Shown in pieces: positions 4,714 to 60,572 of a DNA stretch of 64,000 nucleotides. The position numbers and the translations under genes are program-made. Source of the stretch: a virus. Positions within the stretch are counted from its first letter, which is position 1, and the number at the start of each line of letters is the position of its first letter. The stretch is from positions 32,001-96,000 of the IMG/VR virus record IMGVR_UViG_3300045988_175036, one strand, 5' to 3'. The notes below the pieces were generated by a model that worked only from the letters and a program-made list of their open reading frames with translations, was not told where the DNA came from and did no database searches.

Positions 4714-4773
4714 ATCGAGGCAACCAAGGATAAAGCAACTTATAAAAAGATTGAGTAAAGGAGGAAAAAATAG

Positions 4774-5658: not shown

Positions 5659-5668
5659 GGAGGTTTGA

Positions 5669-11600: not shown

Positions 11601-11605
11601 GATAA
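5669..11605 (+). CDS. tail-associated protein / tail fibre (Tal-like, 1978 aa)
   Basis: Lies after Dit, with a GGAGG RBS. Very large beta-rich protein with a C-terminal fibre-like region carrying GVINATDG repeats. Confidence 0.6.
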   Translation: MKKDIYQISLWEDYVVPATDTVPEHYEEQLLGIIGSDTMTAEYRATEPKLIQNINGTNTLTFKVYYTYIDTETGERQDNPFIKLLVNERKVKCLWKGQWYDFVIKSIQEDSSGKSITYTCKDLYINELSKTGFNLEFDNELENNQGTAQELGAKILEGTDWQVASEGQDIVQQTIEEPLFLVQIQTAITVYKSNGKDTYEIPSSKKILVPYSVTQTPYPQIFQFFYDEDENYAKYQEDNSVHLTGLDCSLLKNPIYSVTDDGTFTLKFGTTTVLTIPNTQPLSDWRADRPIRAPLQEYSSLVGRYCYVYKGYAGKKIYKYITTEYNDPTVVLNLVVNNKEFKDTTGWIGEGMSWQLYPPYTDISNIESYSATTYLGLQGGKTIYNAGLQKSSMYIEGGFQKGEKYIFRVKGYQTLGGAKLTTNYHIDPKVCSHDNNFTPLATSDANYINYFDVGTAIQNGDWIEYPMTCQVSIPRSKITTSNIGLFITPVVSCWIEEFQFFKEVYGKDSDGNSTRINPGEMDKNSVATEVYCYFDSATTVLDEKDIEYLWKATSDWSGSSVPEPQYSIDADGNYTYEKIRSITGKNSNRFNLLQSVAETFECWVRFEIKHNENTGKILYEDGKPQKFVYFKNEVGEENGCGFVYGIDLKTISRSINSDQITSKVVVVPNTTQYAENGVCEIAQSEYNPCKENFILNFDYYINQGLLDGGAANKDLWLSSASGGLGYYPSLKEKNEEYYKSVEENVARKLEHDKQNSTLQLYQQYLTSTTEQITSTKSDIARLAGLLSYDAARVTSYVKEHPGFEKLETLIVTLKTLEGQKTDYQGIYGNLKKSVDALEKAIEAAEARQTKLLEEIDTLHKAFYEKYSRFIQEGSWTSQNYLDENLYYLDAKSVAYTSARPQISYNISVLRLSALDEFKNKVFRIGDISYIEDTEFFGYTYIATESGKVRSPYREKVLISEITSNFDSPEKDSFKVQNYKTQFEDLFQRITATTQSLQYSVGEYQRASDVVEGTGVINNETLQSSIARNEQLIFSSQNNTIVKDATGLTVIDASNPSNQTKITAGGLFITTDGGLTWKNAIRGEGIATQYLTAGAINTENITILDGINPSFRWDSYGITAYKKNVSDNGILLGYTSNQFVRYDQYGIYGVKDITIQDASGEYKPSSEDQIWNDASFGLTWKGFFLKNKYGAGLVEISSEKDINISDGTNDRIRIGKLSGDGTTENPYTFGIRINDATGAIVMETNSDGTLWLKDSLNVETTDSGLKVAIGKLGERDDSGLAQVINANDAFIVYEDGSVRALNGNFTGVINATDGFFSGVINATDGSFTGVINATGGTIGSIQITNEGLTVGNGGFEITKTGVDGTIEKLLYVDDEGNLKITGDLEGAGGYFSGELRAPTGTIGGFVIEENLLYSLGQDENGSPNIVLKGTEGKIVARDIELGVGAVIKDYIKLGNAFLQNPDIHDNKFIEIKDENGQPIISLTDTGIFTLGSLVFNGINSTISGKNWGITPDEARFGNVIAQGGTIENVIFKTSSIQTLGGLMIFKPTSHGVGEGNIFTLDEENSFFQKGDFVSITSVGERSFSIETYIVDKNGLEVTLADNVEGAEAITKLASASWVDGRAVSLSDELLIGINPNPAGLGKDAHLFRSGFSFVEPELGEDGKSLEYNAPSLFLGNLSSLGIQNVSGFGLYGDNVFLKGTLTTKTGADTYAGINTLSGVLSNKVRFTTQGKIVIWAGASNFDESSIQNAPFFVTDNGNLFARQGVFEGSILTNSTIQGADIYAARIHGGTQESDGVAALTIYDTAAGIIFKKNFDENNKENGGQETFRISADGFIQNGIEFISFEDEGVQFSGNRARMVQFQTQFENASLIMKGTSLYKGISVDSGNTQVLSKIDFSTGDKEQIDFIVGERIASFTNEEAIFDKKTVLRDNVLMGDINTVYVSYQKVAKGYDVYVYTNENVDVSSNIVDIAVAGYAIAG
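9578..9673 (+). repeat. three tandem ~33 bp in-frame repeats (FTGVINATDG / FSGVINATDG / FTGVINATGG)
   Basis: The direct repeat is seen both in the DNA and in the translated Tal sequence NFTGVINATDGFFSGVINATDGSFTGVINATGG. Confidence 0.8.
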
Positions 11606-11617
11606 AAGGAGATATAA

Positions 11618-14600
11618 ATGGCAACTACTGGTTATTTTGATGGCGCAAAGACGAGTAGGGGCTGGTATGCGCGCCTTGAGTGGTCATACACTCAAGGCAC
11701 CTCTACCACTATTACCCTTACGTTGAAAGTGTATAATGGAACTGCGCCCTCTTATAATAATTTCACAAATTCTGCTTATTACATACTAGCTGGCAATAAA
11801 ATATACAAAACTTTCAATTGGACTTCAGTTGGATGGAATACACTAGGAACGACCACAGCTGTGGTAGAGGGTTCTAAAACTTCTTATTCTGCTAGTGCGC
11901 AATGGGTAAGTGGAGTAACTTCAGCATATACTCCTGCATCACTATCTGTGAATGGAGTTATTACTTTCCCTGCCTGTACATCTAACGTAGGTGCGCCTTC
12001 TGGAGCTTATGTTAGAACTCCTTATTGGGATAAAGGCTCTATTATTCCTCCTACGACTACTAATATGACAGTGGCTTGGTGGCCAGCTTCTGACGGAAAT
12101 GGAGGCAATACTGTTTCTTCATATAAAATTTATTTTCTAATTAGTTCCTCAGGAGCAGTTCCATCTGAAAGCAATTATTCCAAAGTATTTACAACAACAG
12201 ACTTGACAAGAGAGGCTGATGGTTCAATTAGAAGGACTTTTAGCTTACCGGTATCAACTTCACAAAGAGGACAGACCATTCGTGCCGCTATTCAAGCAAT
12301 TGGTTCTTTAGGAATGAATTCTGCGCTTGTGGCTTGCTCTACAGTGATAACTGTAAATAAGAAACCTTCCGCGCCGACTGGCCCAGTGTCTCTTTTATAT
12401 AGTTCTACTTATACAGAATGTCATCCAGAAATTATTGTTGGCAATTCAAATGATGCTTCGCAAACGCCTACATTATATTATAGCTTAAATAATTCAACAA
12501 CTAAAAATCAATATACTTCTTCAACAAAACTTCCTCTTATGGCTTCTTCGCAGTCTTATAACTTTTACACCTTTGATGGACTAGAATATAGCGATAGTTT
12601 TACTTGTGTTATTACAAAAAATATAAAACCGATATTATCCAACGTAACAGTGACGATTTCCGAGACAGCAGTCACAAAAAACAGTGCTTTTTCTACAAAT
12701 TCTATATACGCGACAAAAATAAAAATTAGTGGTAATTCTTCTAAATCTAATGGTTACTTCAAAATCCAGCTAAAATATCAAAATTATGCAGCTTCGCCAA
12801 CTTTATATAATAAAGCAGTCGAAATTCAAAGAATAGATGGAGGTCTTTTGAAGAATAAAGAAATCTCTATTCTAAGCTATGTCCCTTATGGAATTAGTTA
12901 TGGAGTTTCTTTAGTTTATAATGATGGAATAGAAAATTCTTCAGAAGTATTTATTGATACCATTCAGGGGAAAAAACTTTCAATTGCACCTTATCCAACA
13001 CTTCAAAAGACATATAATCAGTTTGATTTTTCAAATATTAGTGGAACAAAAGAAAATGAATTTTGGAATAAAATTCGTTTTTGTTATACTTATGATAGCA
13101 CGTTTGTAGGAGATAAAAGCAGATTTTTCTTATCTGGCAGTGCTCTTGAAGTATTAGACGTCCAAACTGGAGCAGATAATAACAAGAACTATATATATTA
13201 TGATGCTACTTTTGCTGATACAATTCCTTCTGGCTCATATACTCTTAGTGCAGTGTTATATGACACGCGCCATCAAGATAGTTCAATTACAGATATTACA
13301 AAGGTAGAGGCAAAAGCAATTTCTTCAATTTTGCCAATTTTGACTTCTTCTACTCAGTTAAATGTATATACTGGCGGCGCAAATGATACTTTTACAATTA
13401 CTTTTACAAAGTTTTACGCAGACGGAGAAAGTCTTGAGGATTGGTCGATTACTTCTTTGAACTCAAGTGTCACTGCTTATTTTGTATATGAAGGAACTTA
13501 CTATATAATTAGTGAGCCGGTAATAGCCGCAGCTGCTTCAGAAGATTTGGTTAGAATCACTTTCAAGAAAAGCGCTGTTCCTGGAATATTTCAAAATTTT
13601 CCAAACAAAAATGGTTTATATGCGATGAATTGCGCAATAAAAATTGTAAATCTGTATGGTCGAGAATTTGATTTTATAGGAACTTCTTCGGTTGGCGTCA
13701 ATTTCAATTCTAGTCCGACAATATCTTTTGAAAAAGCTAATGTAAAATATCAATATAATAATAGTAGTTATCCTCTCAATGATAATCCTATTAGAGAAAC
13801 ATTAGTTCTTTGCTTCTCTCCCACTATCAAAGGTTATAATAACTCTCAGATAAATTTCTTTATAGATGTTTCAAGAGCAACAAGCTCCGGCCCCTGGGAT
13901 CTATTCACAAAAGGAACTTGTTTTAGAAGTGGTGAGCCATCTTATAATTCGCCTTCAGAGTTTAGTTCTTATGGGATCGGGCGTACTTCAATAAAAGAAA
14001 TTACAGATAATAATGCTTGCTGGTTCAGAGTTAGAATAAATGACGGTTATAATAATGAAGTAACGAGCTCTGTTGTAGGTCCTTTTTCTCGCGCGAAACA
14101 TATCGCTATGGATTTGACATTATCAGAATTACAGTATGCTTCAAATAAATTTACCTTCAATTATAAAATAAATGACTTAGGTCTAGCTCAAAGTTCTCTC
14201 ACGGATGGAACAATAATAATTCAACATTCAGAAGGAGCCCTTCAAGAGCAAACTTCTGGCATCGCGTGGGTTCCACATAATTTTTCTTGGGTTTCTTTTA
14301 TTTCTGGGAAATCTTCATCTGTCAGTTATTCAATGTCCGGAGATTTTGAATATGTCCGAGCGAAAATAACTACATTGTTTACGACAGATTATCCTTCAGG
14401 TCTTTCTATTACAACTAGAAAAATTTCTTATTCTAATAGTGATTTAGTTTATAACGTCACTCCAACTTTTGCTATAAGAAGGAATCAGTTGGGAATAAAT
14501 GTTGTTGAACCAACTGATTATGCTGATGGTGCTGTGGTTATTGGCGCGGCGACTGGTAAGAAAATGGTATATTTTTTGAGCGCAAACGGTATGGCTACCA

Positions 14601-14656
14601 TTGATATGGAAAATCTTTCAATCAATAATTTTATTATTGATGGCGGCAGTTGGTAA
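11618..14656 (+). CDS. putative receptor-binding / tail fibre protein (1012 aa, S/T/N-rich)
   Basis: RBS AAGGAG. Last large gene of the tail module, with beta-rich low-complexity composition. No catalytic motif recognised. Confidence 0.45.
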   Translation: MATTGYFDGAKTSRGWYARLEWSYTQGTSTTITLTLKVYNGTAPSYNNFTNSAYYILAGNKIYKTFNWTSVGWNTLGTTTAVVEGSKTSYSASAQWVSGVTSAYTPASLSVNGVITFPACTSNVGAPSGAYVRTPYWDKGSIIPPTTTNMTVAWWPASDGNGGNTVSSYKIYFLISSSGAVPSESNYSKVFTTTDLTREADGSIRRTFSLPVSTSQRGQTIRAAIQAIGSLGMNSALVACSTVITVNKKPSAPTGPVSLLYSSTYTECHPEIIVGNSNDASQTPTLYYSLNNSTTKNQYTSSTKLPLMASSQSYNFYTFDGLEYSDSFTCVITKNIKPILSNVTVTISETAVTKNSAFSTNSIYATKIKISGNSSKSNGYFKIQLKYQNYAASPTLYNKAVEIQRIDGGLLKNKEISILSYVPYGISYGVSLVYNDGIENSSEVFIDTIQGKKLSIAPYPTLQKTYNQFDFSNISGTKENEFWNKIRFCYTYDSTFVGDKSRFFLSGSALEVLDVQTGADNNKNYIYYDATFADTIPSGSYTLSAVLYDTRHQDSSITDITKVEAKAISSILPILTSSTQLNVYTGGANDTFTITFTKFYADGESLEDWSITSLNSSVTAYFVYEGTYYIISEPVIAAAASEDLVRITFKKSAVPGIFQNFPNKNGLYAMNCAIKIVNLYGREFDFIGTSSVGVNFNSSPTISFEKANVKYQYNNSSYPLNDNPIRETLVLCFSPTIKGYNNSQINFFIDVSRATSSGPWDLFTKGTCFRSGEPSYNSPSEFSSYGIGRTSIKEITDNNACWFRVRINDGYNNEVTSSVVGPFSRAKHIAMDLTLSELQYASNKFTFNYKINDLGLAQSSLTDGTIIIQHSEGALQEQTSGIAWVPHNFSWVSFISGKSSSVSYSMSGDFEYVRAKITTLFTTDYPSGLSITTRKISYSNSDLVYNVTPTFAIRRNQLGINVVEPTDYADGAVVIGAATGKKMVYFLSANGMATIDMENLSINNFIIDGGSW

Positions 14657-21341: not shown

Positions 21342-21384
21342 ACTAGTCCCCTTTACTCTTTATAAAAATATTATATCAAAAATT

Positions 21385-47238: not shown

Positions 47239-48294
47239 TTGGAGCTAAGCAAAACTCAAGAAGAAATTTTGGCGTCATCTGCTTCTGTTGTATTTGTTCA
47301 ATCTTGTGCGAGTAGCGGGAAAACGAGATTATTGACTGAGAAAATTCGCCAATCTATCTCGCGTGCGAAAAAGCTGGTAGCTTTTACTTTTACAAACATG
47401 GCGGCAGCAGAAATTCGTAGTAGATTGAATGTTGAAAATAGTGATGTAATTTGGATCGGCACTATCCATTCTTACTGCGCGAGATGCTTGTTGCGCGCGG
47501 GAATTACAGAAGCAGGAAAGTATTTGAATAATGAAAATTTTGATGGTCTTTTTGACCTTGCGCGAAGCCATCCAAGGGCTTTTCCTTCTTTAGACATTTG
47601 CCTACTGGATGAAGCGCAGGATAGTAATGAAGATCAATTCAATTTTATTTTTTCAATTATCAAAAGTGCGGAATACTTTGTAGTTTATGATGAGCGGCAG
47701 TCTATTTATCGATGGAATGGAAGTAGACCAGATCTTTTGAAATATTGGGCTTACGAACTAAACGCTTCTATTTATTCAATGGATGAAAATTATCGTAATG
47801 GTAGCGATATTCTTGATTTTGCGCGGGATATTATTAGAAAAAATAAAATGAGTGATTTATCTATTCCGATGCGTGGAGTGCGTGGGAGGGTCATTGAAGT
47901 TCCTTTTTCTATCAAGTATCTTGTTGATGAAATCAAGTCCACTTCTAATTATGGCGATTGGATGGTGCTCGCGCGCACGAATGCGGAAGTAGATAATATT
48001 TTTGATAAGTTGACTGATGCTGGAATTCCATGCGATACATTCAAGCAAGGTGACCTGTCAAAAGATGAGCTAAGCGAAAAAATGAAAGCAGATACTGTGA
48101 AGGTTCTTACCATTCACTCAAGCAAAGGACTTGAGACACGCTATGTAGCTGTATATGATAGCCGGATGTGGAACGAAGAAGAAGTCTGTATTTCTTATGT
48201 TGCGGCGACTCGCGCGCGTGATCGCCTAATTTGGTTTACTAAACCAGTTGTAAAAAAGAAACCTCGAAGAAACTCAATGACGAGTTGGGAGTAA
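47239..48294 (+). CDS. UvrD/Rep-like superfamily 1 DNA helicase (compact)
   Basis: CASSGKTRLL (Walker A), LLDEAQD, TIHSSKGLE and YVAATRARDRL. Confidence 0.85.
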   Translation: MELSKTQEEILASSASVVFVQSCASSGKTRLLTEKIRQSISRAKKLVAFTFTNMAAAEIRSRLNVENSDVIWIGTIHSYCARCLLRAGITEAGKYLNNENFDGLFDLARSHPRAFPSLDICLLDEAQDSNEDQFNFIFSIIKSAEYFVVYDERQSIYRWNGSRPDLLKYWAYELNASIYSMDENYRNGSDILDFARDIIRKNKMSDLSIPMRGVRGRVIEVPFSIKYLVDEIKSTSNYGDWMVLARTNAEVDNIFDKLTDAGIPCDTFKQGDLSKDELSEKMKADTVKVLTIHSSKGLETRYVAVYDSRMWNEEEVCISYVAATRARDRLIWFTKPVVKKKPRRNSMTSWE

Positions 48295-48296
48295 AT

Positions 48297-49223
48297 ATGG
48301 AAAAAATATCAGCATTACTTTTTATGGTTTCTGCTGTTGTTTTTCTAATTCTTTTCATTGGACAAAAAAAGAAAATAAAGCAAAAAAATTATGAAATTGA
48401 GCAACTAAAAGAAAAGAATAAAAAAGATGCTGAAAATTTTTGGAAAGACTTGGATGTGGCAGAACAAAAAGTTTATGAAGATAATCACAAAAAGAGAAAT
48501 GAGCGACTTCAGCAATTGAATGAAATTATTGCTAAGCAAGAAACTTTTCAAGTGAATAGAAAATCTTCAATTGAAGAAGAAATCCAAGAACTCCGTTTAC
48601 AAAAGCTTCAGCAGCTTCAAAATCAGCTTATCATAGATAAAGCGCAAATTGACCAAGATAAAAGAGATTATGAATTAGAACTTGAAAAGGTGAAGTGCGA
48701 ACTTTCTCAATTTCAAGCAAAGCGCCAAGCAGTGAATGAAGCGATTCGGCGCGAGCGTGAAGTTGAGGAAAAAGAGGATTTCTATCGCATTTGTCTTTTG
48801 CCAGAAGAAATTGAAGATATAGAAGTCTTGAAAAGTTTGGCACCAAGGCTTCGGCATCGTGAAATAGTTCCAAAACTAATGTGGGATACAATGGTTTCGC
48901 GTGCGACGAAGGAAATGATAAAGCGAGTAACAGGTGGCCGCGCAGTTGGTGGTATTTACAAAATTACCTATATTCCAACTGGTGAATCTTATATTGGGAA
49001 AACGACTGATTTTGGAACACGTTGGCAATCACACGTCCAAACCGCGCTTGGTATGGAGAAAGTTGCTCGTTCAACTCTTCATGTACATATGGCTTCTCAT
49101 GGAATTCAAAACTATACTTTTGAAATTTTGGAAGAGGTTGCGCGCGAAAAGCAAACAGAAAGAGAAAAATTTTATATTGAGCTTTATGGGACGCAAAAAC
49201 AGTTGAATATGAGGATTGGTTGA
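48297..49223 (+). CDS. GIY-YIG nuclease domain protein with N-terminal TM helix and long coiled coil
   Basis: ISALLFMVSAVVFLILFIG (TM helix), a ~170 aa E/K/Q-rich coiled coil, and a C-terminal GGIYKITYIPTGESYIGKT...REKFYIELYG. Confidence 0.65.
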   Translation: MEKISALLFMVSAVVFLILFIGQKKKIKQKNYEIEQLKEKNKKDAENFWKDLDVAEQKVYEDNHKKRNERLQQLNEIIAKQETFQVNRKSSIEEEIQELRLQKLQQLQNQLIIDKAQIDQDKRDYELELEKVKCELSQFQAKRQAVNEAIRREREVEEKEDFYRICLLPEEIEDIEVLKSLAPRLRHREIVPKLMWDTMVSRATKEMIKRVTGGRAVGGIYKITYIPTGESYIGKTTDFGTRWQSHVQTALGMEKVARSTLHVHMASHGIQNYTFEILEEVAREKQTEREKFYIELYGTQKQLNMRIG

Positions 49224-50039: not shown

Positions 50040-51131
50040 ATGAGTTTTATAATTGATGGCGTTGATTTTGAAAATCTTGAAGCTGAGAAGTATTGGAGTT
50101 TTACTTCTTCCTATACGCCTGAAAGAAAGAAACGAGAAGCAATCAACATGGTTTATTCTGGAGATTATCTTGGGGCGCGGAAGATGGACGGAGCGTATTA
50201 TCGAGCTATAATCTCTGAGGATGGCGAACTTCGTCTACAAGGCCGATCTAAGTCCGTAAAGGGAGGATACCTAAACAAAATTGATTGGGTTCCTCATTTG
50301 AAGTCTTTCTTTGAGGCTCTTCCGCGAGGAACCTGTTTACTTGGCGAAGTCTACTTCCCAAAGAATGAAGGTTCTTATAACACAACTACAATTATGGGCT
50401 GTCTTGCGCCTAAAGCAGTCGCGCGCCAAGAAACAGGAGAAAAACTTCACTATTATGTTTTTGATATTTGGGCTTATGACGGAGAAAGCTATTTGAATAA
50501 GACAGCAGAAGAGCGTTTTACAATGATTCAGAATCTTCCCAAGTCAGATTATGTTGAGTTTGCTCAATACTATGAAGGCGCTGAGTTGTGGCAGAAATAT
50601 CAAGAAATTTTGGCTGAAGGTGGAGAAGGTGTTGTTATTACTCGACGTGATTCTAAACCACAACCCGGTAAACGCAGCGTGCGGAAGACTCTTAAACTGA
50701 AGAAAGAACTTCAAGAAACACTTGATGTCTTTATCTATGGTGGAAATCCTCCGACCCGTCTTTATTCTGGAAAAGAAATCGAAAACTGGCAGTATTGGCA
50801 AAATACTGTTACGCATGAACTTATGTGCGGCGACCATTATAAGGAATATTTTGAGGGTGATACAATTGAACCTGTCACAAAAATGTATTATATGCGTGGT
50901 GCTGGTAGTCTAAAGATTGGCGCGTATAAGGATGGAAAACCGGTTCAGATTGGTAGTTTGAGTGGTTTAGATGATGAGATTTTGTTGAATTGGAAGGACT
51001 ATATTGGGAAGGTCGCAGAGGTTACTTGTATGGAGGTTCTGCCTACAGGAGGATTGCGCCATAGTCGTTTCTTAGGTTGGCGCGTCGATAAGGTTCCTCG
51101 CGATTGCCAGTGGGAGACAATTTTTGGTTGA
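50040..51131 (+). CDS. ATP-dependent DNA ligase
   Basis: Adenylation motif ARKMDGAYYR (KxDG), plus LLGEVYF, EGVVITR and LKLKK. Confidence 0.85.
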   Translation: MSFIIDGVDFENLEAEKYWSFTSSYTPERKKREAINMVYSGDYLGARKMDGAYYRAIISEDGELRLQGRSKSVKGGYLNKIDWVPHLKSFFEALPRGTCLLGEVYFPKNEGSYNTTTIMGCLAPKAVARQETGEKLHYYVFDIWAYDGESYLNKTAEERFTMIQNLPKSDYVEFAQYYEGAELWQKYQEILAEGGEGVVITRRDSKPQPGKRSVRKTLKLKKELQETLDVFIYGGNPPTRLYSGKEIENWQYWQNTVTHELMCGDHYKEYFEGDTIEPVTKMYYMRGAGSLKIGAYKDGKPVQIGSLSGLDDEILLNWKDYIGKVAEVTCMEVLPTGGLRHSRFLGWRVDKVPRDCQWETIFG

Positions 51132-53119: not shown

Positions 53120-53148
53120 TTGAAACTTTTGAAAAATTTTGATATAAT
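53120..53148 (+). promoter_or_regulatory. promoter (TTGAAA-N17-TGaTATAAT, followed by ATTTATAGAAA box)
   Basis: -35 at 53120-53125, -10 at 53143-53148. Confidence 0.65.
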
Positions 53149-53839: not shown

Positions 53840-54737
53840 GTTGCTACGAAAATATGGTGCGCATCAAGATAAAATCCAAGAATTTGTTGGAAGATTTCCA
53901 AATGGTGTTGAAGCACTAGACTTTCTTGAAGAAATTGGCCCTGAAGCGATTGCTGGTAATTATAGTCCATGGCTTGAGGCATTATACTGGGGTTACCGAA
54001 TGCTACCCTGGACCACCAAAGAAAAAGAGAAATACTGTGAAGTTTTGAATATTGATAGTTCTTCTAGCGTCTATGAAAGTTATGATGTAGAAGAAAGTGA
54101 AAAAGTTATTCATTCTGATCACATTTATTTGAGCGGAAACATTGATAACTGTAGTAATATTAGAAATAGTAATTACGTTGCTTCTAGTGCTACAGTTGAA
54201 GGAAGTGACGGTGTCCTAAAGTCAGAATATATTGTGAATAGTAGTCTAGTTGATACTGGAATGGACATTCAAAGTTCAAAAGAAATTTATAAAGCATCAC
54301 ATGTGAAGAAAAGTCAGAAGTGCGCGCGAGTCGATAGTATTGAGAATTGCGTCGGAATTTTCAGTTCTTCTGGATGTGAAGAGGTCTATTACTCTTCTTT
54401 TATGAAGAATTGTCATCATTGTCTTTTCTGTGATGATATTGAGGATGCTTCTTTTAGAATCTTCAACCAACCAGTGCCTGAGAAGGATTTCTTCGTAATT
54501 CTTTCGATGGTTGAGAGCTATTTTGATAACAAGCTTGAACCTTTGATTGAAACTACAGTAAATGACGAATTTTATTTTGGCCTTGATTGGCATGTTTCGA
54601 CGCACTTTACAAAGATTTACAGAAGCCTGTCGCAGGAGGTTTTCAATCAACTTTATAGACTACCTGGTTATAATGACTGGCTGATGTATCAGATTACATT
54701 GAATACTCTGAGTTTTCGAGATTTGAAAAATAGCTAA
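53823..54737 (+). CDS. hypothetical protein (Cys/Ser-rich repeat region)
   Basis: ATG 53823 follows AAGGAG. Repetitive S/N/V-rich middle section with CHHCLFC. Confidence 0.55.
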   Translation: MYLTVELLRKYGAHQDKIQEFVGRFPNGVEALDFLEEIGPEAIAGNYSPWLEALYWGYRMLPWTTKEKEKYCEVLNIDSSSSVYESYDVEESEKVIHSDHIYLSGNIDNCSNIRNSNYVASSATVEGSDGVLKSEYIVNSSLVDTGMDIQSSKEIYKASHVKKSQKCARVDSIENCVGIFSSSGCEEVYYSSFMKNCHHCLFCDDIEDASFRIFNQPVPEKDFFVILSMVESYFDNKLEPLIETTVNDEFYFGLDWHVSTHFTKIYRSLSQEVFNQLYRLPGYNDWLMYQITLNTLSFRDLKNS

Positions 54738-54751
54738 ATTTCGAGTATAAT
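54723..54751 (+). promoter_or_regulatory. promoter (TTGAAA-N17-TATAAT, followed by ATTTATACAAA box)
   Basis: -35 at 54723-54728, -10 at 54746-54751. Drives the first RNA segment of the island. Confidence 0.6.
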
Positions 54752-54785
54752 ATTTATACAAAATGGTTGAGGAAAGGAAAAAGAA

Positions 54786-54920
54786 ATGACTTATCATTGG
54801 AAGACAGAAGTAGCAATTCTTGAAAATCGCATCCATCTTCTTGAACAGCGTGGAGATAACGTGCCAATTGTCTCAAAGTTGAAGCGACGACTAAGAAAGC
54901 TATTATCTAGCTCTTATTGA
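54786..54920 (+). CDS. possible 44 aa ORF (or 5' part of the downstream structured RNA)
   Basis: ATG follows GAGGAAAGGAAA. Encodes MTYHWKTEVAILENRIHLLEQRGDNVPIVSKLKRRLRKLLSSSY. Too short for the ORF track. Confidence 0.3.
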   Translation: MTYHWKTEVAILENRIHLLEQRGDNVPIVSKLKRRLRKLLSSSY

Positions 54921-55544
54921 GCTATTTGGCGCACGACAGAAACTTACCGTGAATGTCTGAAGTGGCCTCAGTTGGGAAGGCTTACCAGCTTTATAAAAAC
55001 CGAGCAATCAAGACAAAGTATTAGCTACACTTTGAGGAAGCAAAGAGGTGGGCGGGAGTCGGCTCTCCCGTAGCTAGAAACCGATTACAGGGTTAAGCGC
55101 AAGACGCTTAGGCCAAGCTATGATGTCATATTTCCGGGGCAATTTCGGTAGTATGACGGAGCTTTTGTCAAGGGTTAGGAGATTTCCACAGATTGCCTAG
55201 GGGTCTACCTCGTAGGAGACTACCGAAAGAAAATCTCCATCTTTATCCTGCCTTAGCACAACGGTAGTGCAACCGGTTTATGCCCGGCATACGGCTCCAG
55301 ATTAGGGCGCGATCTCGGTTCGAATCCGAGGGGCAGGACCAAAGGTATCCAAACTACCTTAATCGTTTGGTGAGGACTCAAGTTACTAAAGTTAGGTCAG
55401 CTTGACATCCAACAGAGACGACCTACACAGGTGAGACAGGTGAGAATGACGGCTTAGTCCTTTCTTGAATAAACAGAACCTGACCCGTTTTGGCGCCAAG
55501 GGTGAACGCTGCTTGAAGGTAAAGAAAGGCAATAAATTTTATAT
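54921..55544 (+). ncRNA. large structured RNA candidate A (~620 nt, contains an internal cloverleaf)
   Basis: No ORF in any frame and visibly higher GC than its flanks. Helices: TAGCTAC/GTAGCTA, CGGGAG/CTCCCG, TAAGCG/CGCTTA, GGAGATTT (55178-85)/AAATCTCC (55231-38), AGGACT/AGTCCT. Promoter at 54723. Ends at tRNA-Asn. Confidence 0.55.
55247..55341 (+). tRNA. tRNA-like cloverleaf with 25 nt extra arm, anticodon-loop UUUAUGC (UAU), CCA encoded
   Basis: Acceptor CCTGCCT/GGGCAGG, D arm GCAC-AACGGTA-GTGC, T arm CTCGG-TTCGAAT-CCGAG, then A-CCA. The anticodon stem has only 4 bp plus an A-C mismatch. The long variable region folds poorly. Confidence 0.45.
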
Positions 55545-55621
55545 GGGAGCATAGCTCAGTTGGTTAGAGCGCATGACTGTTAATCATGATGTCGAAGGTT
55601 CAAGTCCTTCTGTTCCCGCCA
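55545..55621 (+). tRNA. tRNA-Asn (GTT)
   Basis: Canonical cloverleaf: GGGAGCA/TGTTCCC acceptor, CATGA-CTGTTAA-TCATG anticodon arm, GAAGG-TTCAAGT-CCTTC T arm, G-CCA end. Confidence 0.9.
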
Positions 55622-55906
55622 AATGATGGCGAGTAGTGCGAATAGAAAAGATAAGAACGAAATAGTACCTTTTATGGTGGATAAACCTATTATTCACTTA
55701 TTGAATCTATTGGAGTCACGCACGGCTCCGCTTGCTATCATTACCAACGGATAAAACTTGTTGTGAGCAAACTTACAAGTTACCTTTTTGACCTCACAAA
55801 CAACTATGCAAGCATATCTTACGCGCAAACTAGATATGACTCCCTCTGGGAGAAAGGTGATTGCGCGGCCGGTTAGCGCTCCTGTCTAAGTTCAAAGCGC
55901 GTTATA
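55622..55906 (+). ncRNA. structured spacer RNA candidate B (~285 nt)
   Basis: ORF-free. Helices include GTTGTGAG/CTCACAAC and ACTTGT/ACAAGT. Lies between tRNA-Asn and a cloverleaf. Confidence 0.35.
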
Positions 55907-55973
55907 TCCCCTTTTAGTGTAATGGTTAGCACAGCAATTGAGGGCAAGAGTGGTTCGATCCCACAGAGGGGAG
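55907..55973 (+). tRNA. tRNA-like element lacking a normal anticodon arm (pseudo-tRNA or mimic)
   Basis: Acceptor TCCCCTT/GAGGGGA, D arm GTGT-AATGGTTA-GCAC, T arm GTGG-TTCGATC-CCAC. Only 15 nt lie between D and T arms, forming UUG-AGGG-CAA. Confidence 0.4.
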
Positions 55974-56053
55974 TCAAAGATAAAATTATCTTTTCTACAC
56001 GGAGAAACTATTGATTCCGAAAACTATCCAATACAAATTGAAAGGAAATTTTT

Positions 56054-56314
56054 ATGGAAAAGATTTTTGAACTCTGTAAAGAGCGTGATATCAGGTGTTA
56101 TTTCAGTTATTGGAAGCTCGACGATTCTATTCATTTTGCTTTCACTAGAACATTTGCTGGCCAAGATTGTAAATTTATACAGGTCGTTCCGATCAAGGAT
56201 ATTAATAATAATTCTCATGTTATCGGACAGTACATTGCAGAACTTATTGAAGACAAGCTGTCGGATGAGAATTGTAGAAAAATGATTCTCGACAGAATTG
56301 AAAAGCTTCTTTGA
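56054..56314 (+). CDS. hypothetical protein (86 aa) inside the RNA island
   Basis: ATG follows AAAGGAAA. Protein-like composition. Sits between two cloverleaves. Confidence 0.45.
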   Translation: MEKIFELCKERDIRCYFSYWKLDDSIHFAFTRTFAGQDCKFIQVVPIKDINNNSHVIGQYIAELIEDKLSDENCRKMILDRIEKLL

Positions 56315-56387
56315 AATCTATTTTTATAATAAGAAAAATAGGTACACTACTTCTTTTATGTTTCGTAGTAGCTGGATTTATAAATAT

Positions 56388-56463
56388 CCTCTATTGGTGT
56401 AATGGTAGCACACTTCCCGTCAAGGAAGAGGGGTCGGTTCGATTCGATATCCTGCATAGAGGA
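56388..56463 (+). tRNA. aberrant tRNA-Asp-like cloverleaf (GUC in a 6 or 8 nt loop, irregular T arm)
   Basis: Acceptor CCTCTAT/ATAGAGG, D arm GTGT-AATGGTA-GCAC, CTTCC-CGTCAA-GGAAG. The T region GTCG-GTTCGATT-CGAT has 7 extra nt before the acceptor 3' strand. Confidence 0.35.
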
Positions 56464-56650
56464 CGGCTTGACACAGCCGGAGTGTTATCTCTGGCATACG
56501 GATTAGCGTATGCAAAGCATTTGTCTTCGGATGGTAAAATGCGAGAGAAGTCATCCCCTTGAACTTCTCACTACATACATCCCCAGCGGTTGTTATGCTG
56601 AGACCGATGGCGCGACGGTCGTTTATAATATCGCGCCATTTGTCTAAAAT
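56464..56650 (+). ncRNA. hairpin-rich spacer C
   Basis: Hairpins CGGCT/AGCCG, GCATACG/CGTATGC, GAGAAGT/ACTTCTC and ATGGCGCGA/TCGCGCCAT. No credible ORF. Confidence 0.35.
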
Positions 56651-56686
56651 GCGGGTGTAGTATAATGGTTATTATGTCTGCCTTCC

Positions 56687-57150
56687 TTCTAAACTTAATG
56701 CGTTAGATATATATGGAGCAATTATCAACTCAATTTAAAGGCGATGTGACTGAACTTTTAGTTAGTGCATATTTACTAAAATTAGGTTATGTAGTATCTA
56801 AACCTTTAACCCAAGATAGTAAATATGATTTAATTGTAGATATTAACCATAAGTTAATTCGTATTCAGGTTAAAACTGCAAGACTAAATGATCGGACCAT
56901 TGGCAAAAGTATTAAGTTTAATTGTAGAAGTACCACAAACAATGTAAGAGAATGCAAACAGCGATATTATTCGCCAGAAGATGTAGATTATTTTGCAACA
57001 TATTGGGATAATGTAGTATATTTAATCCCAGTTACTGAATGTAGTGCTGAGAAAATTTTATGGATAGATAAGCCTACATATAAAAACAGTTGTTTTGCAA
57101 ATGATTATCTGGCAGAGGAGGTATTACAACGCATTTAAGCATTGGAAGGG
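56687..57150 (+). mobile_element. 464 nt endonuclease-carrying intervening sequence in the tRNA-Gly anticodon loop
   Basis: Inserted after C36. Only 26 nt upstream and 12 nt downstream are outside the ORF and its stop codon. The ends pair: CCTTCC (56681-86) with GGAAGG (57144-49), and CTTAATGCGTT (56694-704) with AACGCATTTAAG (57128-39). Confidence 0.7.
56713..57138 (+). CDS. PD-(D/E)XK homing endonuclease (I-Ssp6803I-like)
   Basis: GDVTELLVSAYLLKLGYVVSKPLTQDSKYDLIVD...IRIQVKT matches the E...G..V..P...YDLIVD...QVK pattern of the tRNA-intron endonuclease family (from memory). Located inside a tRNA anticodon loop. Confidence 0.65.
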   Translation: MEQLSTQFKGDVTELLVSAYLLKLGYVVSKPLTQDSKYDLIVDINHKLIRIQVKTARLNDRTIGKSIKFNCRSTTNNVRECKQRYYSPEDVDYFATYWDNVVYLIPVTECSAEKILWIDKPTYKNSCFANDYLAEEVLQRI

Positions 57151-57273
57151 AAGCAGAAGATGGGGCTTCGATTGCCCTCACTCGCTCCACCGCCCCATGG
57201 GAAGTTTGCCTCCAATAAGTCTCATGACCACTACTAGATTGCACTAGTTGACTGAATAAAGGTGGTTTTATAT

Positions 57274-57350
57274 GCACTTGTAGCTCAGTTGGTAGTAGCA
57301 ATTGCCTTTTAAGCAATGGGTCGGGCATTCGAGTTGCCCCAAGTGCACCA
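57274..57350 (+). tRNA. tRNA-Lys (TTT)
   Basis: GCACTTG/CAAGTGC acceptor, ATTGC-CTTTTAA-GCAAT anticodon arm, GGGCA-TTCGAGT-TGCCC T arm, A-CCA end. Confidence 0.9.
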
Positions 57351-57430
57351 CTTTATTTGGAATCAATAGCTTGTCCACCTTTGGGCGACCCGTAATAGCC
57401 GGACATTTGAAAATTTCTTCTCGTAAATGT

Positions 57431-57459
57431 TTGAAATTTTTCTGATTTTTTGATATAAT
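57431..57459 (+). promoter_or_regulatory. promoter (TTGAAA-N17-TGaTATAAT, followed by ATTTACAGAAA box)
   Basis: -35 at 57431-57436, -10 at 57454-57459. Confidence 0.65.
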
Positions 57460-57485
57460 ATTTACAGAAAGTGAGGGAAACGAAA

Positions 57486-57662
57486 ATGGAAACTGAAACT
57501 CCGTGGAAGCCCGAAGTAAAGAAAATGTCTCCCGAACAACTTGAGAAGTGGACGGCGCTCCGTAAAAAGTGTCAAGTCTTTCCTTCTCGAAAACCATATT
57601 CGCGCAAAATCAAACATAAAAATCGAGAAAAAGAAAAAGAAAAAGAAGAAAACGAAATTTGA
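57486..57662 (+). CDS. small basic hypothetical protein (58 aa)
   Basis: ATG 57486 follows GTGAGGGAAA. K/R/E-rich C-terminus. Confidence 0.45.
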   Translation: METETPWKPEVKKMSPEQLEKWTALRKKCQVFPSRKPYSRKIKHKNREKEKEKEENEI

Positions 57663-57687
57663 AAAACTTCTAAAATTTTGGTATAAT
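57659..57687 (+). promoter_or_regulatory. promoter (TTGAAA-N17-TGgTATAAT, followed by ATTTATACAAG box)
   Basis: -35 at 57659-57664, -10 at 57682-57687. No protein gene for about 1.6 kb downstream. Confidence 0.65.
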
Positions 57688-57704
57688 ATTTATACAAGAT
57701 GAGA

Positions 57705-57746
57705 GAGAGAGGAACTGGTCTTTTCCTTTCTACCAGTTCCTCTCTC
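57705..57746 (+). other. 15 bp perfect hairpin at the 5' end of the promoter-proximal RNA
   Basis: GAGAGAGGAACTGGT (57705-19) pairs with ACCAGTTCCTCTCTC (57732-46). No T-run follows, so it is not a terminator. Confidence 0.7.
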
Positions 57747-57778
57747 AGAAAGTCCTAATGTGGCTTACTTGAAAACTA

Positions 57779-57852
57779 TCCGATGTAGTTCAACTGGTTA
57801 GAACACCGCATTGATAAAGCGGAGCTGTCGGTTTGAGATCCGGCCTTCGGGT
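57779..57852 (+). tRNA. probable tRNA-Ile (GAT) with 8 nt T loop and mismatches
   Basis: Acceptor TCCGATG/CTTCGGG (6/7 paired), D arm GTTC-AACTGGTTA-GAAC, CCGCA-TTGATAA-AGCGG (A-A at 31:39), T arm GTCGG-TTTGAGAT-CCGGC. No CCA encoded. Confidence 0.5.
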
Positions 57853-58248
57853 AGTTGGTAAGCAGTCCCAAGCCTGCATAAACACAGAGGGAGACTAATA
57901 GCGGTATTACAGTGGCCAATGTAATATCCAAAATTTCGAGACAGGCAAGTCTTCAGGCAGTAGATGTCTGATAAAACAACGACGGCGAAGGAGTCGCGAC
58001 CTTCGGAGGAGCCGAGATAAACCTACGGGGAACCGCCATCGGAGAAAAGGAATTTATTAGTCAAATCAGTTTCGTGGTTCTGGGACTCAAAACCACCTCG
58101 CGCAGTTCTTACGGCGCAATATAAATAGGATGGGCGCTATCTGACATGGCGTGACGTTCAGAAGTTTCGATGCGTGGGCTTACCTATAAAACTCATGCTG
58201 GGTCTTTGGAGCCTTTTACCTCCTGTGTGAAACAAAAGGCTCGTATAT
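57853..58248 (+). ncRNA. large structured RNA candidate D (~400 nt)
   Basis: ORF-free and GC-enriched. Contains the GTGGTT/AACCAC hairpin. Bounded by the Ile-like tRNA and tRNA-Leu, in the transcription unit of the 57659 promoter. Confidence 0.45.
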
Positions 58249-58334
58249 GCAAGTGTGGTGGAAATGGCATACACATCTGATTCAAGCTCAGATGCCCACT
58301 GGGATTAAGGGTTCGACTCCCTTCACTTGTACCA
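58249..58334 (+). tRNA. tRNA-Leu (CAA), type II
   Basis: GCAAGTG/CACTTGT acceptor, 3 bp D stem, TCTGA-TTCAAGC-TCAGA anticodon arm, extra arm CCC-ACT-GGG, T arm AAGGG-TTCGACT-CCCTT, A-CCA end. Confidence 0.85.
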
Positions 58335-59282
58335 GAAATTCGTGTCCCGCTAAGCTCTATAATGATTGTGGCGAGGCTAAGGCGTTGGCAGATAAGGGGC
58401 AACCGCACGAATTAGAATATTGCGCAGGTCGTCTAACAGTAGGACGCCAGACTCATTATCTGGAGACAACGTGCAACTCGTTCGTGCGCAACCATTCGCT
58501 TTGGCGAAACTCTCGTAGAGGATGGATTTTACGGTTCAACTACCACCGGCTTCCGAGCCCGACCGCTATGGCTGACAACGAAGATATGTGGCTTTGTCAT
58601 TTGCCGAGAGTATAATAAATAAAAACGAAAGCAAACCGTTTATTTGTTCCTTGAAAATAAAATATCTTAGAACTCGATGACAAACATTCTGTGACTAGGA
58701 ATGTCGAGGCGTTTTGAAAAGGGCGGCAGACAACGAACAAGGATACTTGTGGATACTGACCGGTGCGCGTGACGTGAGTTGCGTGCCAGAGAGGATGGAC
58801 TCCCAACCCTAAGAGGCGGCATCGAGATTAACGCGAGTAAAGGTAGGACGCGCGTCGCTGGCGTAATAGAGGCTTTCAAGATAATTGAGAGCTGAATCCT
58901 AATCTCCCTTAGTTGGTGACTGTGGGTAAATCATTTGATTAGGAAATAACCACAAGCCAGTTTGTTGTGAAGCGAAGAAATTCGTGTATAAGACGTGTAT
59001 GTGGCCTCTGAGTAGCCAAAGACAAGCACAATAATGATTATTGATAATAAAAATCAAGAACTTGCTGAATGGCTGGTGAAAGGTTCTGGTAATCAATCCA
59101 GAAGAGACTACGCGCACGAAGGTGCGGCTATGGGAAGTATGCGCGGGACGCTGCGTATGCTCAGCCCCATGGTGCTCTTGACTGAATATACTTGAAGTTA
59201 GTTTTCGGTAGGTTGAAGAACCCATAGATATTTTATTTTCAGGGAACAAATCCCTTTTGACGGAAAGGAACGTCAAAATTTT
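58335..59282 (+). ncRNA. large structured RNA candidate E (~950 nt, possibly two RNAs)
   Basis: Only short overlapping ORFs without an RBS, and about 50 percent GC by eye. Helices: AATTCGTG (58337-44)/CACGAATT (58406-13), TTCGC-TTTG-GCGAA, CGCAC-GAAG-GTGCG. Ends with hairpins AGGGA/TCCCT and TTGACG/CGTCAA plus a T-run. Confidence 0.5.
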
Positions 59283-59305
59283 GAAATGATAGGAGAGGAA
59301 CTATT

Positions 59306-59596
59306 ATGGCAAGATTTTATAGCGATATTACAAACAAGCTCTACGATAGCATGGATGACCTTGAAGAGGCTGAAAAGAAGATTATCGCAAAACAAGAAGA
59401 GAAAAGAGTGGCAGAACAGAAGCGTGCAGACGAGCGCAAAGTTCGCGCACAGGAAATTGATGAACTGCAAAAGACTTATGTAGAGGCACGAAAGGCGTAT
59501 ACAGAAGCTCTTGAGAAATTCTGTAATGATTACGGAACTTTTCACACCTCCATTTCTTCTGATAATCTTTTCGATTTTCTTTGGAGTTGGATGTAA
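59306..59596 (+). CDS. hypothetical coiled-coil protein
   Basis: RBS AGGAGAGG, followed by a terminator. Confidence 0.6.
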   Translation: MARFYSDITNKLYDSMDDLEEAEKKIIAKQEEKRVAEQKRADERKVRAQEIDELQKTYVEARKAYTEALEKFCNDYGTFHTSISSDNLFDFLWSWM

Positions 59597-59603
59597 TAGG
59601 AAC

Positions 59604-59630
59604 GCGCCCTTGACTGGGCGCTTTCTTTTT
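59604..59630 (+). terminator. rho-independent terminator
   Basis: GCGCCC-TTGACT-GGGCGC stem-loop, then TTTCTTTTT. Confidence 0.75.
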
Positions 59631-59660
59631 ATCAAAATAGAAATATAAAGGAGAAAACGA

Positions 59661-59861
59661 ATGACGCTTTATTTCGACAATGGATATGAGCCGAGGCGGC
59701 CTATTGGTCATCCTAGCACTAAGGAAAGTGCGTATCAACTGGTTTACAAGTTTTTAGAGGAGCACAACTATAAGGCCCCCTATACAAGAGAATGGACAAA
59801 TGACATCAATGAGACTTGGATTGATGTTGGAAGCCACACAGAATTCTTTATTTGGTGCTAA
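59661..59861 (+). CDS. hypothetical protein
   Basis: RBS AAAGGAG. Confidence 0.55.
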   Translation: MTLYFDNGYEPRRPIGHPSTKESAYQLVYKFLEEHNYKAPYTREWTNDINETWIDVGSHTEFFIWC

Positions 59862-59933
59862 TTTATCAAGATTATTTGGCGCGCGACTACTTAGGGATAG
59901 AAAGAAAAATATATCCCAGAAAAGGAGAATAGA

Positions 59934-60572
59934 ATGAAGAAAAATGAAGATATCGGACTACTACCGCTAGTCCAAATTCCAGAAAGCGCGAATTATTCAC
60001 TTCCCGACGATAATCTCCTGTCGTTCTACAATGATTTGGAAGAACGATTACTTTGGGTAACAGATGGAATTGATAGCTGTTCCTTGAATATTATTCATTA
60101 TATTTTGAAGTGGAATCGTGAAGATAAGGGGATTGAGCTTTCCGCGCGAAAGCCTATTCGTCTTCTCATTTTTAGCCCCGGTGGAGAGCTTGATGTTTTT
60201 ACTGCCATCGGCAATATTATTCGCCTTTCAAAAACTCCTGTTATTGGTATCAATATTTCGTGCGCTTATAGTGCCGCGGCGATGATACTTTTAATGTGTC
60301 ATAAGAGATATGCTTTGAGCAGTGATGTTTCTGTTCTTTTCCATCAAGGAAGTTGTTCCGGCATTCAGGGAACTTATGATCAGATTGCTAATTTTATGAA
60401 AGAATATGATGAGCAAGTTTCTCGTCTTTCTCAGGTTATTCTCGATAGAACTTCATTTACAAAAGAAGAAGTAGATGAAAAGATGAAGAGCGATTGGTAT
60501 GTATCCGCGCGCGAAGGCGTTGAACGCGGCGTATATGATGGTATTATTTCTTCTATCGATGAATTGATTTGA
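59934..60572 (+). CDS. clpP: ClpP-family serine protease
   Basis: LLIFSPGGELDVFTAIGNII, SCAYSAAAMILL and VLFHQGS match the ClpP Ser/His blocks. Confidence 0.8.
   Translation: MKKNEDIGLLPLVQIPESANYSLPDDNLLSFYNDLEERLLWVTDGIDSCSLNIIHYILKWNREDKGIELSARKPIRLLIFSPGGELDVFTAIGNIIRLSKTPVIGINISCAYSAAAMILLMCHKRYALSSDVSVLFHQGSCSGIQGTYDQIANFMKEYDEQVSRLSQVILDRTSFTKEEVDEKMKSDWYVSAREGVERGVYDGIISSIDELI

Follow-up and report, generated by a model that had tools for sequence, protein, structure and literature searches.

An RNA-coding island of a phage genome with ROOL and drum RNAs, a predicted twister ribozyme, a candidate new RNA motif and an interrupted tRNA-Gly gene

The island at positions 54738–59290 of a 64,000-nt stretch of viral DNA (positions 32,001 to 96,000 of IMG/VR record IMGVR_UViG_3300045988_175036; hereafter the window) codes almost entirely for RNA. 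It holds only four credible open reading frames (ORFs), one for an endonuclease and three small ones that remain open wherever a sister phage carries them (Table 1). Four ordinary tRNAs and four tRNA-like elements accompany them. Neither Pfam nor PHROG gave a family for the 44-aa or the 86-aa product. The non-ORF share of the island is 3554 of 4553 nt (78%) and has a G+C content of 44.3%; the four ORFs reach 34.0% and the window outside the island 37.4%. A search of the whole window with Rfam at gathering thresholds returned 8 matches, all within the island: ROOL, drum and six tRNA-type elements. A permissive rescan of 54000–60000 added sub-threshold matches only, twister among them. ARAGORN reported five tRNAs in the window, again all in the island and on the plus strand: a 95-nt tRNA with anticodon UAU and tRNAs for Asn, Lys, Ile(GAU) and Leu(CAA). 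Because the ORF, tRNA and Rfam, G+C and promoter results agree, the RNA island that an earlier reading of the letters alone had described (hereafter the original prediction) is confirmed. Its tally of three small ORFs and one endonuclease ORF is borne out by the ORF listing and the relatives, and its statement that the ORF-free DNA is richer in G+C than the coding DNA agrees with the figures above.

The original prediction proposed an RNA of the ROOL or GOLLD type beside the tRNAs. Rfam identified a full-length ROOL at almost three times its gathering score, spanning positions 1–574 of the 574 in the model. ROOL scores 272–285 bits in all relatives, which are IMG/VR viral genomes, and has a tRNA-like element and tRNA-Leu less than 400 nt upstream. 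It is an ordinary member of the described family, and so is drum, which is present in all relatives. The terminal hairpin of drum (GGAGA...TCTCC) is followed by ATCTTTAT, where the terminator scan makes no call. Drum ends 4–10 nt before the 95-nt tRNA in every relative that has this tRNA (all but L002; L numbers denote the other loci compared). GOLLD (RF02032) gave no match in 54000–60000 even at E ≤ 5 and none at the gathering threshold across the whole window. ROOL accounts for just 594 of the ~3550 non-ORF bases.

Just before ROOL lies a conserved pseudoknotted RNA, here called motif J. Relatives of motif J were found with nhmmer in one distant phage and in one prophage-like contig of a metagenome-assembled genome (MAG), and a degenerate pattern recovered it in ten further unrelated IMG/VR contigs, in most of which it sits just 3' of a tRNA. 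A profile built from nine other phages only had the window copy as its single match. The copies share GGAUUUU, CGGUUMAACUACCACCGGC, GAUAUGUGGC and GAAGUAAACCG. The outer helix P1 is wholly variable in sequence. The inner helix P3 changes in pairs (CCAC/GUGG vs CUAC/GUAG), as does the pseudoknot (CGGUU/AACCG vs CGUUU/AAACG). Covariation, scored on segments extracted by hand, gave 105 of 105 cells paired and compensatory changes at 7 of 15 pairs, and 0 of 500 shuffles scored as high. No Rfam family matched motif J in the permissive scan of 54000–60000. Motif J, a candidate new RNA family, is the clearest new item of the island.

The original prediction listed an Ile-like, near-canonical tRNA, which turned out to be embedded in a predicted twister ribozyme. 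The tRNA-Ile(GAU)-like fold lies inside P3 of what is predicted to be a complete twister of type P1. The 3' half of the ribozyme is the 38 nt right after the Ile-like tRNA (GCAG-UCCCAAGC-CUGC-AUAAA-CACA-GAGGG), and the 5' half, TAATGTGGCT, stands at 57756–65, 21 nt upstream of the tRNA-like fold. In DNA letters, the halves TAA-TGTG-GCT and GCAG-TCCCAAGC-CTGC-ATAAA-CACA-GAGGG match the canonical template, and the conserved blocks UAA, GCU, GUCCCAAGCC, AUAAA and GAGGG are all present. P2 (TGTG/CACA) and P1 (AGTC/GACT) pair perfectly (4/4 and 4 bp), and P4 pairs 3/4 in the scored register, the same as in 13 of the 14 canonical twisters. In P3, 5 bp of extension (AACTA/TAGTT) stack on the cloverleaf's acceptor stem, and the cloverleaf stands on a 12-bp stem; the extension covaries (AGCCA/TGGCT in L009, AACCA/TGGTT in L007). 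Both halves are invariant in 8 aligned relatives including L007, in which the cloverleaf has a 12-nt T-arm deletion and no tRNA match and the flanking ribozyme halves are intact. The Ile-like element itself is not conserved as a complete cloverleaf, with a U1-G72 pair, a U-U mismatch and no CCA. A permuted (type P3) twister at 57855–57931, with TACAGTGGCC at 57908–17 as its 5' half, was considered and rejected; L007 breaks its pairing and keeps an alternative hairpin through 4–5 compensatory changes. In L079 (about 9444–9580), the P3 of a canonical phage twister measures 87 nt and forms a three-way junction, with no likeness to a tRNA; large P3 inserts are therefore not peculiar to the window.

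Compensatory changes among relatives back structure in three stretches, motif J, stretch D and the 352-nt stretch H-rest, and the structure of all three is conserved. H-rest is 88–98% conserved in nine relatives and has 9 pairs changed on both sides compared with 1.8 ± 1.1 in shuffles, mostly in one hairpin of L007. It has no known family and no homologue outside the clade in the IMG/VR pattern and nhmmer searches; the IMG/VR pattern for H, GACGGCGAAGGAGTCGCG, returned the same clade only and four chance matches in coding DNA. Across 56380–56650, 8 of 73 predicted pairs survive two-sided changes, seven of them in two hairpins of D, and the double changes of the D region occur in L007 and L012. 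Single-sequence folding z-scores are mostly unremarkable (-0.15 to -1.2; +0.82 for spacer B), with exceptions of -2.9 for 55622–56053 and -4.25 for 56315–56650. The helices claimed by the original prediction are upheld by compensatory changes in three stretches. Its suggestion of a new class of RNA holds in part, as motif J and 57897–58248 have no Rfam family and a conserved structure. Among the remaining stretches, A is 93–99% conserved in relatives and has no Rfam match, the relatives are too alike in C for covariation, and spacer I is present in 3 relatives. An nhmmer search against 100 kb of other phage loci gave nothing for the stretches lettered A, B, C, E, F, G, H and I, and a marginal match (E 0.009) for tRNA-like element 2 and D.

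The tRNA census of the original prediction stands for the canonical tRNAs (Asn, Lys and Leu) and for the split tRNA-Gly, and its three aberrant cloverleaves become four (the 95-nt tRNA, tRNA-like elements 1 and 2 and the element with anticodon CAU). The 95-nt tRNA has both a UAU anticodon and a long variable arm, which is unusual. tRNA-like element 1 has acceptor, D and T arms and a degenerate anticodon arm, is called by neither ARAGORN nor Rfam, and has a 5' half paralogous to that of element 2. The anticodon-arm stem of element 2 covaries (CUUCC/GGAAG vs CUCCC/GGGAG). The element with anticodon CAU has no ARAGORN call here, and its homologue in L067 is called tRNA-Met by the same program. 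In four other loci, tRNA-like genes have ORF-less insertions of 27–60 nt in or beside the anticodon arm, with the acceptor, D and T arms intact (Table 1); these might represent another type of short intervening sequence.

Promoters of the class TTGAAA-N17-TATAATATTTA occur 7 times in the window, where 0.13 would be expected. Three copies are inside the island, and those outside are at 21365 (minus strand), 43003, 53120 and 63173. The original prediction counted at least four copies pointing into the island; three are found inside it and one, at 53120, 1.6 kb upstream. A fourth in-island candidate belongs to motif J, the TATAAT near 58612 being the conserved 'ATA' after stem P1, and was rejected as a promoter. 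The class probably marks one temporal group of phage transcription units. The right unit, from the promoter at 57659 to about 59285, contains no ORF at all and is composed, in order, of a leader hairpin, the twister, H-rest, tRNA-Leu, a tRNA-like element, motif J, ROOL and the terminator. The terminator scan reports the last hairpin on the minus strand only, and its reading on the plus strand was made by eye. The left part contains drum, tRNAs, tRNA-like elements, the three small ORFs and the invaded tRNA-Gly.

Table 1. Positions of the features of the island in the window, and of comparable features at other loci (L numbers)
Feature	Position	Strand	Basis or remark
Phage promoter, TTGAAA-17-TATAAT class	54723–54751	+	11/12 consensus positions
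Small ORF, 44 aa (orf44)	54786–54920	+	open in 10/10 relatives
Stretch A, upstream of drum	54921–55114	+	G+C 49.5%; z-score -0.59
drum RNA (RF02958)	55115–55242	+	Rfam 56.9 bits vs 43, model positions 1–112 of 112
tRNA, 95 nt, anticodon UAU, long variable arm	55247–55341	+	ARAGORN; Rfam 48.2 bits
Variable spacer B	55342–55544	+	L010 only among relatives; z-score +0.82
tRNA-Asn(GUU)	55545–55621	+	ARAGORN; Rfam 74.5 bits
Stretch C, ORF-free	55622–55900	+	fold of 55622–56053, z-score -2.9
tRNA-like element 1	55908–55971 (about)	+	read from sequence
Small ORF, 86 aa (orf86)	56054–56314	+	open in 6 relatives
tRNA-like element 2, 6-nt anticodon loop	56387–56463	+	Rfam tRNA 22.5 bits, below cut-off
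Stretch D, four hairpins and long-range closing helix	56464–56650	+	compensatory changes
tRNA-Gly(UCC) 5' exon, nucleotides 1–36	56651–56686	+	relatives; ARAGORN intron mode
Intervening sequence, 464 nt, between tRNA nucleotides 36 and 37	56687–57150	+	relatives; ARAGORN
PD-(D/E)XK endonuclease gene, I-Ssp6803I family, 141 aa	56713–57138	+	PF11645 E 1.3e-23
tRNA-Gly 3' exon	57151–57189	+	relatives; ARAGORN intron mode
tRNA-Lys(UUU)	57274–57350	+	ARAGORN; Rfam 60.3 bits
Phage promoter, TTGAAA-17-TATAAT class	57431–57459	+	consensus scan
Small ORF, 58 aa (orf58)	57486–57662	+	open in all relatives; in-frame 3-nt indel
Phage promoter, TTGAAA-17-TATAAT class	57659–57687	+	heads ORF-free unit
Leader hairpin, 15 bp	57704–57747	+	3' of 57659 promoter
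Twister ribozyme, type P1 (RF03160), predicted	57751–57896	+	template of 14 canonical phage twisters
Twister stems	P1 57751–54/57893–96; P2 57759–62/57883–86; P4 57862–65/57874–77	+	
Twister P3 region, 95 nt	57766–57860	+	holds tRNA-Ile(GAU)-like fold
tRNA-Ile(GAU)-like fold	57778–57853	+	ARAGORN; Rfam 44.7 bits
H-rest, structured, 352 nt	57897–58248	+	9 compensatory pairs
tRNA-Leu(CAA)	58249–58334	+	ARAGORN; Rfam 50.8 bits
Spacer I, closed stem	58335–58421	+	read from sequence: ATTCGTG with CACGAAT
tRNA-like element, anticodon CAU, aberrant T arm	58422–58490	+	Rfam tRNA 43.7 bits
Motif J, conserved pseudoknotted RNA, 130 nt	58509–58638	+	profile E 2.7e-16
Motif J stems	P1 58509–14/58606–11; P3 58543–46/58588–91; pseudoknot 58532–36/58634–38	+	
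ROOL RNA (RF03087)	58649–59242	+	Rfam 285.9 bits vs cut-off 99.1, E 1.5e-65
Terminator-like hairpin, then TTTT	59255–59278	+	read from sequence
tRNA-like genes with 27–60-nt insertions	L031:592–711; L035:401–536; L038:843–966 and 1009–1125; L047:about 2922–3039		
ROOL, GOLLD-like or RAGATH-33 sites in other phages	L039:2913–3426; L040:943–1300; L024:2182–2310; L029:212–340; L047:2462–2592		

The source of the window is, approximately, a phage with a genome of roughly 115 kb, or about 100–120 kb, and with a Bacillota host. The window codes for gyrase A and B, a DnaB-type helicase, RecJ, UvrD, RNase H, an ATP-dependent ligase, a ClpP-like protease and PhoH, and the helicase shares ~30% identity with its counterparts in SPbeta-like Bacillus phages and in phages of Staphylococcus, Enterococcus and Lactobacillus. 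No close cultured relative was found, as a megablast search against 50,697 phage records matched 57 nt of tRNA-Asn only. Ten sister genomes of 90–121 kb exist in IMG/VR, with flanking genes 94–100% identical. The distance between the flanking genes is 4378–7857 bp among these phages and 6114 bp here, and a BLAST map has whole modules present or absent between sisters. All ten have ROOL, drum and a varying set of tRNAs. Co-infecting relatives would swap parts of the island, which would evolve by module exchange. Elsewhere in the window, three consecutive very large ORFs (1567, 1978 and 1012 aa) occupy 10–14656 at the left end, and at 48285–49223, directly after the UvrD-type helicase gene, stands an ORF of 312 aa that has a GIY-YIG nuclease domain at its C-terminus and may encode another homing endonuclease.

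Overall, with a probability of about 0.85, 54738–59290 is a tRNA and non-coding-RNA island of such a phage. The positions of promoters, terminator, tRNAs and ribozyme point to co-transcription of the RNAs and their processing together with the tRNAs. Transcription would run rightwards through the island, starting at no fewer than three promoters of one class. The twister and, by way of RNase P and RNase Z, the tRNAs and tRNA-like folds would act as punctuation in long transcripts, cutting ROOL, drum, motif J and other RNAs free. The predicted twister cut at T57756|A57757 would free the transcript from the 57659 promoter of its leader hairpin, and RNase P cleavage at the 95-nt tRNA would set the 3' end of drum.

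Several points weigh against this interpretation. We infer co-transcription, the processing sites and twister cleavage alike. The twister scores below the Rfam cut-offs, with 28.0 bits (5'-truncated) against 67.2 for type P1 and 22.8 against 39.9 for type P3, which we attribute to the inability of the model to span a 95-nt P3 insert. The z-scores of A, B, H and 58332–58648 are not significant, and A, B, C and I carry no assigned identity. The sisters are 88–99% identical, so that the covariation of H-rest and D depends on one or two divergent genomes (L007 and L012), and both structures were predicted from the very alignments then used for scoring. The host and the phage taxonomy are approximate and rest on 30% helicase identity.

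The split tRNA-Gly(UCC) has been examined through the relatives. Seven sisters (L003–L008 and L012) join window base 56686 straight to 57151 and have an intact tRNA-Gly(UCC) of 59–62.5 bits; the insert is therefore exactly 56687–57150. L009 carries the same insert, 99.8% identical to that of the window. The alleles differ in the presence or absence of the insert at this exact site; such polymorphism between otherwise identical alleles is a trait of homing endonucleases. The encoded endonuclease also matches the I-Ssp6803I structure (PDB 2OST, E 8e-10), and its family, PF11645, is the ssp6803i homing endonuclease group (PMC3424549). The ORF takes up 426 of the 464 nt and leaves 26 + 12 nt (38) outside; its G+C content is 31%, and the protein is 57% identical between two examples. 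Homologues of the endonuclease (36–74% identity) occur in 20 viral contigs and 3 MAG contigs. Nearly all of them lie within a tRNA gene, and these tRNA 'introns' are 455–488 nt long. The interruption affects tRNA-Gly(UCC), three subtypes of tRNA-Thr(UGU) and tRNA-Lys(UUU); it recurs in about 15 other phage contigs, and the anticodon loop is split 5+2 in all cases.

The ends of these inserts have a common structure. The last three intron bases complement the anticodon throughout (GGN/UCC, ACA or AUA/UGU, AAA/UUU), so that tRNA positions 34–36 pair with intron positions -1 to -3 and change in step across Gly, Thr and Lys. The helix, of 10 bp, goes on with intron +1 to +7 paired to -4 to -10 and is followed by a small loop with a conserved CAUUG. 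A second helix of 6–13 bp, unrelated in sequence between cases, closes the ORF. In a pseudo-alignment of 14 sequences, 92.4% of cells are paired, a figure that includes five anticodon-stem pairs, compared with 64% in shuffles and 25–39% in slid controls. The covariation score is 0.82 against 0.25, and 0 of 500 shuffles scored as high. The helix score helped to pick some of the intron boundaries, most of which were already the top candidates by tRNA rules. The minimum-free-energy fold of the 539-nt precursor yields the cloverleaf arms and both helices. The family structure has a 2x2 loop (32,33 / 37,38) followed by the 10-bp helix, with the 5' site after the third pair of the helix and the 3' site at its base. 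The two putative splice sites are 3 bp apart on opposite strands of a nearly continuous helix, which would give 3-nt 3' overhangs.

Three accounts of the insert were considered and rejected. Group I introns have a core (P3–P9) of at least ~200 nt, follow a 5' exon that ends in U and themselves end in an invariant G. The 38 nt outside the ORF are too few for a group I core or another ribozyme, and a group I intron was rejected on size, on the lack of a terminal G and on the exon's final C. In the tRNA-Gly cases, 4/4 5' exons end in C and the introns terminate in G, T, A or T; in tRNA-Thr and tRNA-Lys the intron ends in A. The Rfam model Intron_gpI did not match the insert, a weak negative given that the same model missed a probable group I intron in L024. 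A canonical bulge-helix-bulge (BHB) was rejected as, in our reading, no register has two 3-nt bulges around 4 bp. The idea that the intron 3' end repeats the entire DNA target as RNA (TTGGAAGG vs CCTTCCAA) applies to tRNA-Gly only and not to Thr or Lys.

The strongest rival, with a chance only a little short of even, is that the tRNA-Gly is a dead gene: a free-standing homing endonuclease has invaded a dispensable tRNA and is never removed from the RNA. The 38 nt outside the ORF leave no ribozyme space, no group I match was obtained, the variable tRNA set of the phages makes tRNA-Gly dispensable, and the 99.8% identity of the window and L009 inserts points to recent spread. However, homing at the DNA level does not predict the anticodon and helix pattern. 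About 15 independent Gly, Thr and Lys cases match the anticodon with the last three bases, and the 10-bp and closing helices have been kept through many double substitutions. The exons also stay canonical, those of the split tRNA-Lys of L029 being identical to the intact tRNA-Lys of L024. As DNA, the element would spread to intact alleles by homing on their anticodon-loop sequence, and as this alone leaves the RNA helices unexplained, we lean somewhat towards removal of the insert at the RNA level by proteins. Candidates for the cutter would be the PD-(D/E)XK endonuclease itself, a host double-strand RNase (RNase III) or another enzyme, after which an RNA ligase would seal the exons. The ATP-dependent ligase at 50040–51131 would matter if tRNA halves require sealing; it was rejected as evidence of tRNA repair, as its match to RNA_ligase (PF09414, E 9e-7) is weaker than that to DNA_ligase_A_M (E 4e-15). 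We put forward tentatively, and at odds clearly below those of the dead gene, that the insert belongs to an undescribed class of ribozyme-less phage tRNA introns with anticodon-helix ends, spliced by proteins, and separately that motif J is a new widespread RNA class. We know of no EndA-type enzyme in bacteria.

According to a 2014 review (PMC3984707), every phage intron known by that time lay in a protein gene, although phages have many tRNA genes. In the literature searched, whose coverage was incomplete, no later account of phage tRNA introns or of BHB in phages was found, nor any prior description of a twister with a tRNA or of the motif J sequence.

Related arrangements have been observed in other phages. 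In L024 (1732–2168; L027:232–668 is the same contig), a phage contig of 161 kb, a tRNA-Leu(UAA) is interrupted after U34 by an intron of 349 nt that lacks an ORF and terminates in G. These features are typical of the classical tRNA-Leu group I intron, and it is probably of that kind; Rfam Intron_gpI gave no match to it at E<0.01. L041, a phage contig of 190 kb, has two endonuclease-split tRNAs (Thr and Lys, 804–1351 and 2162–2704) 800 nt apart. In the island of the sister L010, a 74-nt stretch at 12037–12106, in another place within the island, matches a portion of the endonuclease ORF at 73% identity and may be a second, diverged copy. Endonuclease-split tRNA arrays of other phages also hold ROOL, a GOLLD-like match (sub-threshold, 71 bits, in L040) and RAGATH-33 RNAs. 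Ornate RNAs beside tRNAs recur in these large phages, in the arrays of L039, L040, L024, L029 and L047.

For the island as a whole, it is unlikely that the ORF-free stretches beyond ROOL, drum and the tRNAs are debris made of decayed tRNAs, recombination scars and incidental hairpins. Debris would suit a mosaic island whose modules have come and gone, the defects of several tRNA-like elements, the unremarkable majority of folding z-scores and the limitation of H-rest to one phage clade. Yet motif J has been kept in unrelated phages with compensatory changes, the hairpins of H-rest, D and the P3 extension pair on through double substitutions, and long blocks of H are invariant while the adjacent ORFs vary. 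More doubtful still is a single new giant RNA of ~1.5 kb from the twister through ROOL (57751–59242), in which ROOL would be a mere domain. One promoter, one terminator and no ORF over the unit are consistent with it, and GOLLD is said in the original prediction to include tRNAs. However, motif J is absent from L002, L004 and L006, other sequence stands in for H-rest in L003 and for part of it in L005 and L006, and all of these sisters retain ROOL; motif J is found without ROOL in other phages, and the canonical tRNA-Leu in the middle of the unit should be excised. That small unannotated proteins explain the conserved ORF-free sequence is hardly credible, for, despite the three real small ORFs in the island, the other plus-strand ORFs of at least 30 aa are alternative frames, overlap ROOL, tRNA genes or further RNA elements, or have no start context, and the substitutions in J, D and H-rest follow pairing (G-U tolerated, double changes) and not codon periodicity.

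Understood as an RNA island, the locus is a compact natural system for ROOL, in which an ORF-free unit ending in ROOL is bounded by a single promoter and a single terminator. Because ten near-identical phages differ by modules, it is practical to test which neighbours ROOL needs and how it is excised. To our knowledge, ROOL is among the largest bacterial RNAs without a known function. Motif J, the twister with a tRNA-shaped P3 and the ribozyme-less insertion may matter more than ROOL itself. The twister would join two RNA-processing systems in one fold, and the inserts, if truly spliced, would represent protein-dependent tRNA splicing in bacteria or phages, hitherto deemed archaeal and eukaryotic.

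Compared with known systems, ROOL, drum and twister are of known kinds, and novelty is possible for motif J and for the ribozyme-less tRNA insertion. ROOL RNAs average 581 nt and are often near tRNAs and often in prophages (Weinberg et al. 2017, PMC5737381). The ROOL described here agrees with the family in its full-length model match, its length of ~590 nt, its place beside tRNAs and its phage location, and differs in nothing essential; a terminator-like hairpin, read from the sequence, follows directly and, in the present clade, motif J precedes it. A 2025 cryo-EM report (PMC12286853) describes RNA-only homo-oligomers of ROOL, and the present ROOL presumably assembles into the RNA-only multimeric cage of its family. 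Drum has been described with an intrinsic terminator after it (PMC5737381), whereas here a tRNA begins 4 nt downstream and the U-tract is weak. GOLLD resembles the RNAs of the island as a large ornate RNA linked to phages or prophages and found near tRNAs. Canonical phage twisters have the same conserved blocks and the same pairing of P1, P2 and P4 in order; their P3 is mostly 3–45 nt, in contrast to the 95 nt here with a tRNA-like cloverleaf on a 12-bp stem. The group I intron with I-Ssp6803I in the tRNA-fMet of Synechocystis shares with the insert the endonuclease family and the anticodon-loop target in a tRNA, while the insert has no ribozyme, ends in G, T or A, follows a C in the Gly exon and has a phage host. 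The BHB introns of archaea and eukaryotes lie at 37/38 with two 3-nt bulges 4 bp apart, whereas the phage insert is at 36/37 and has no such bulges. Both have an anticodon-loop site, a pairing of the anticodon region that extends the anticodon stem and no ribozyme, and both can carry homing endonuclease genes.

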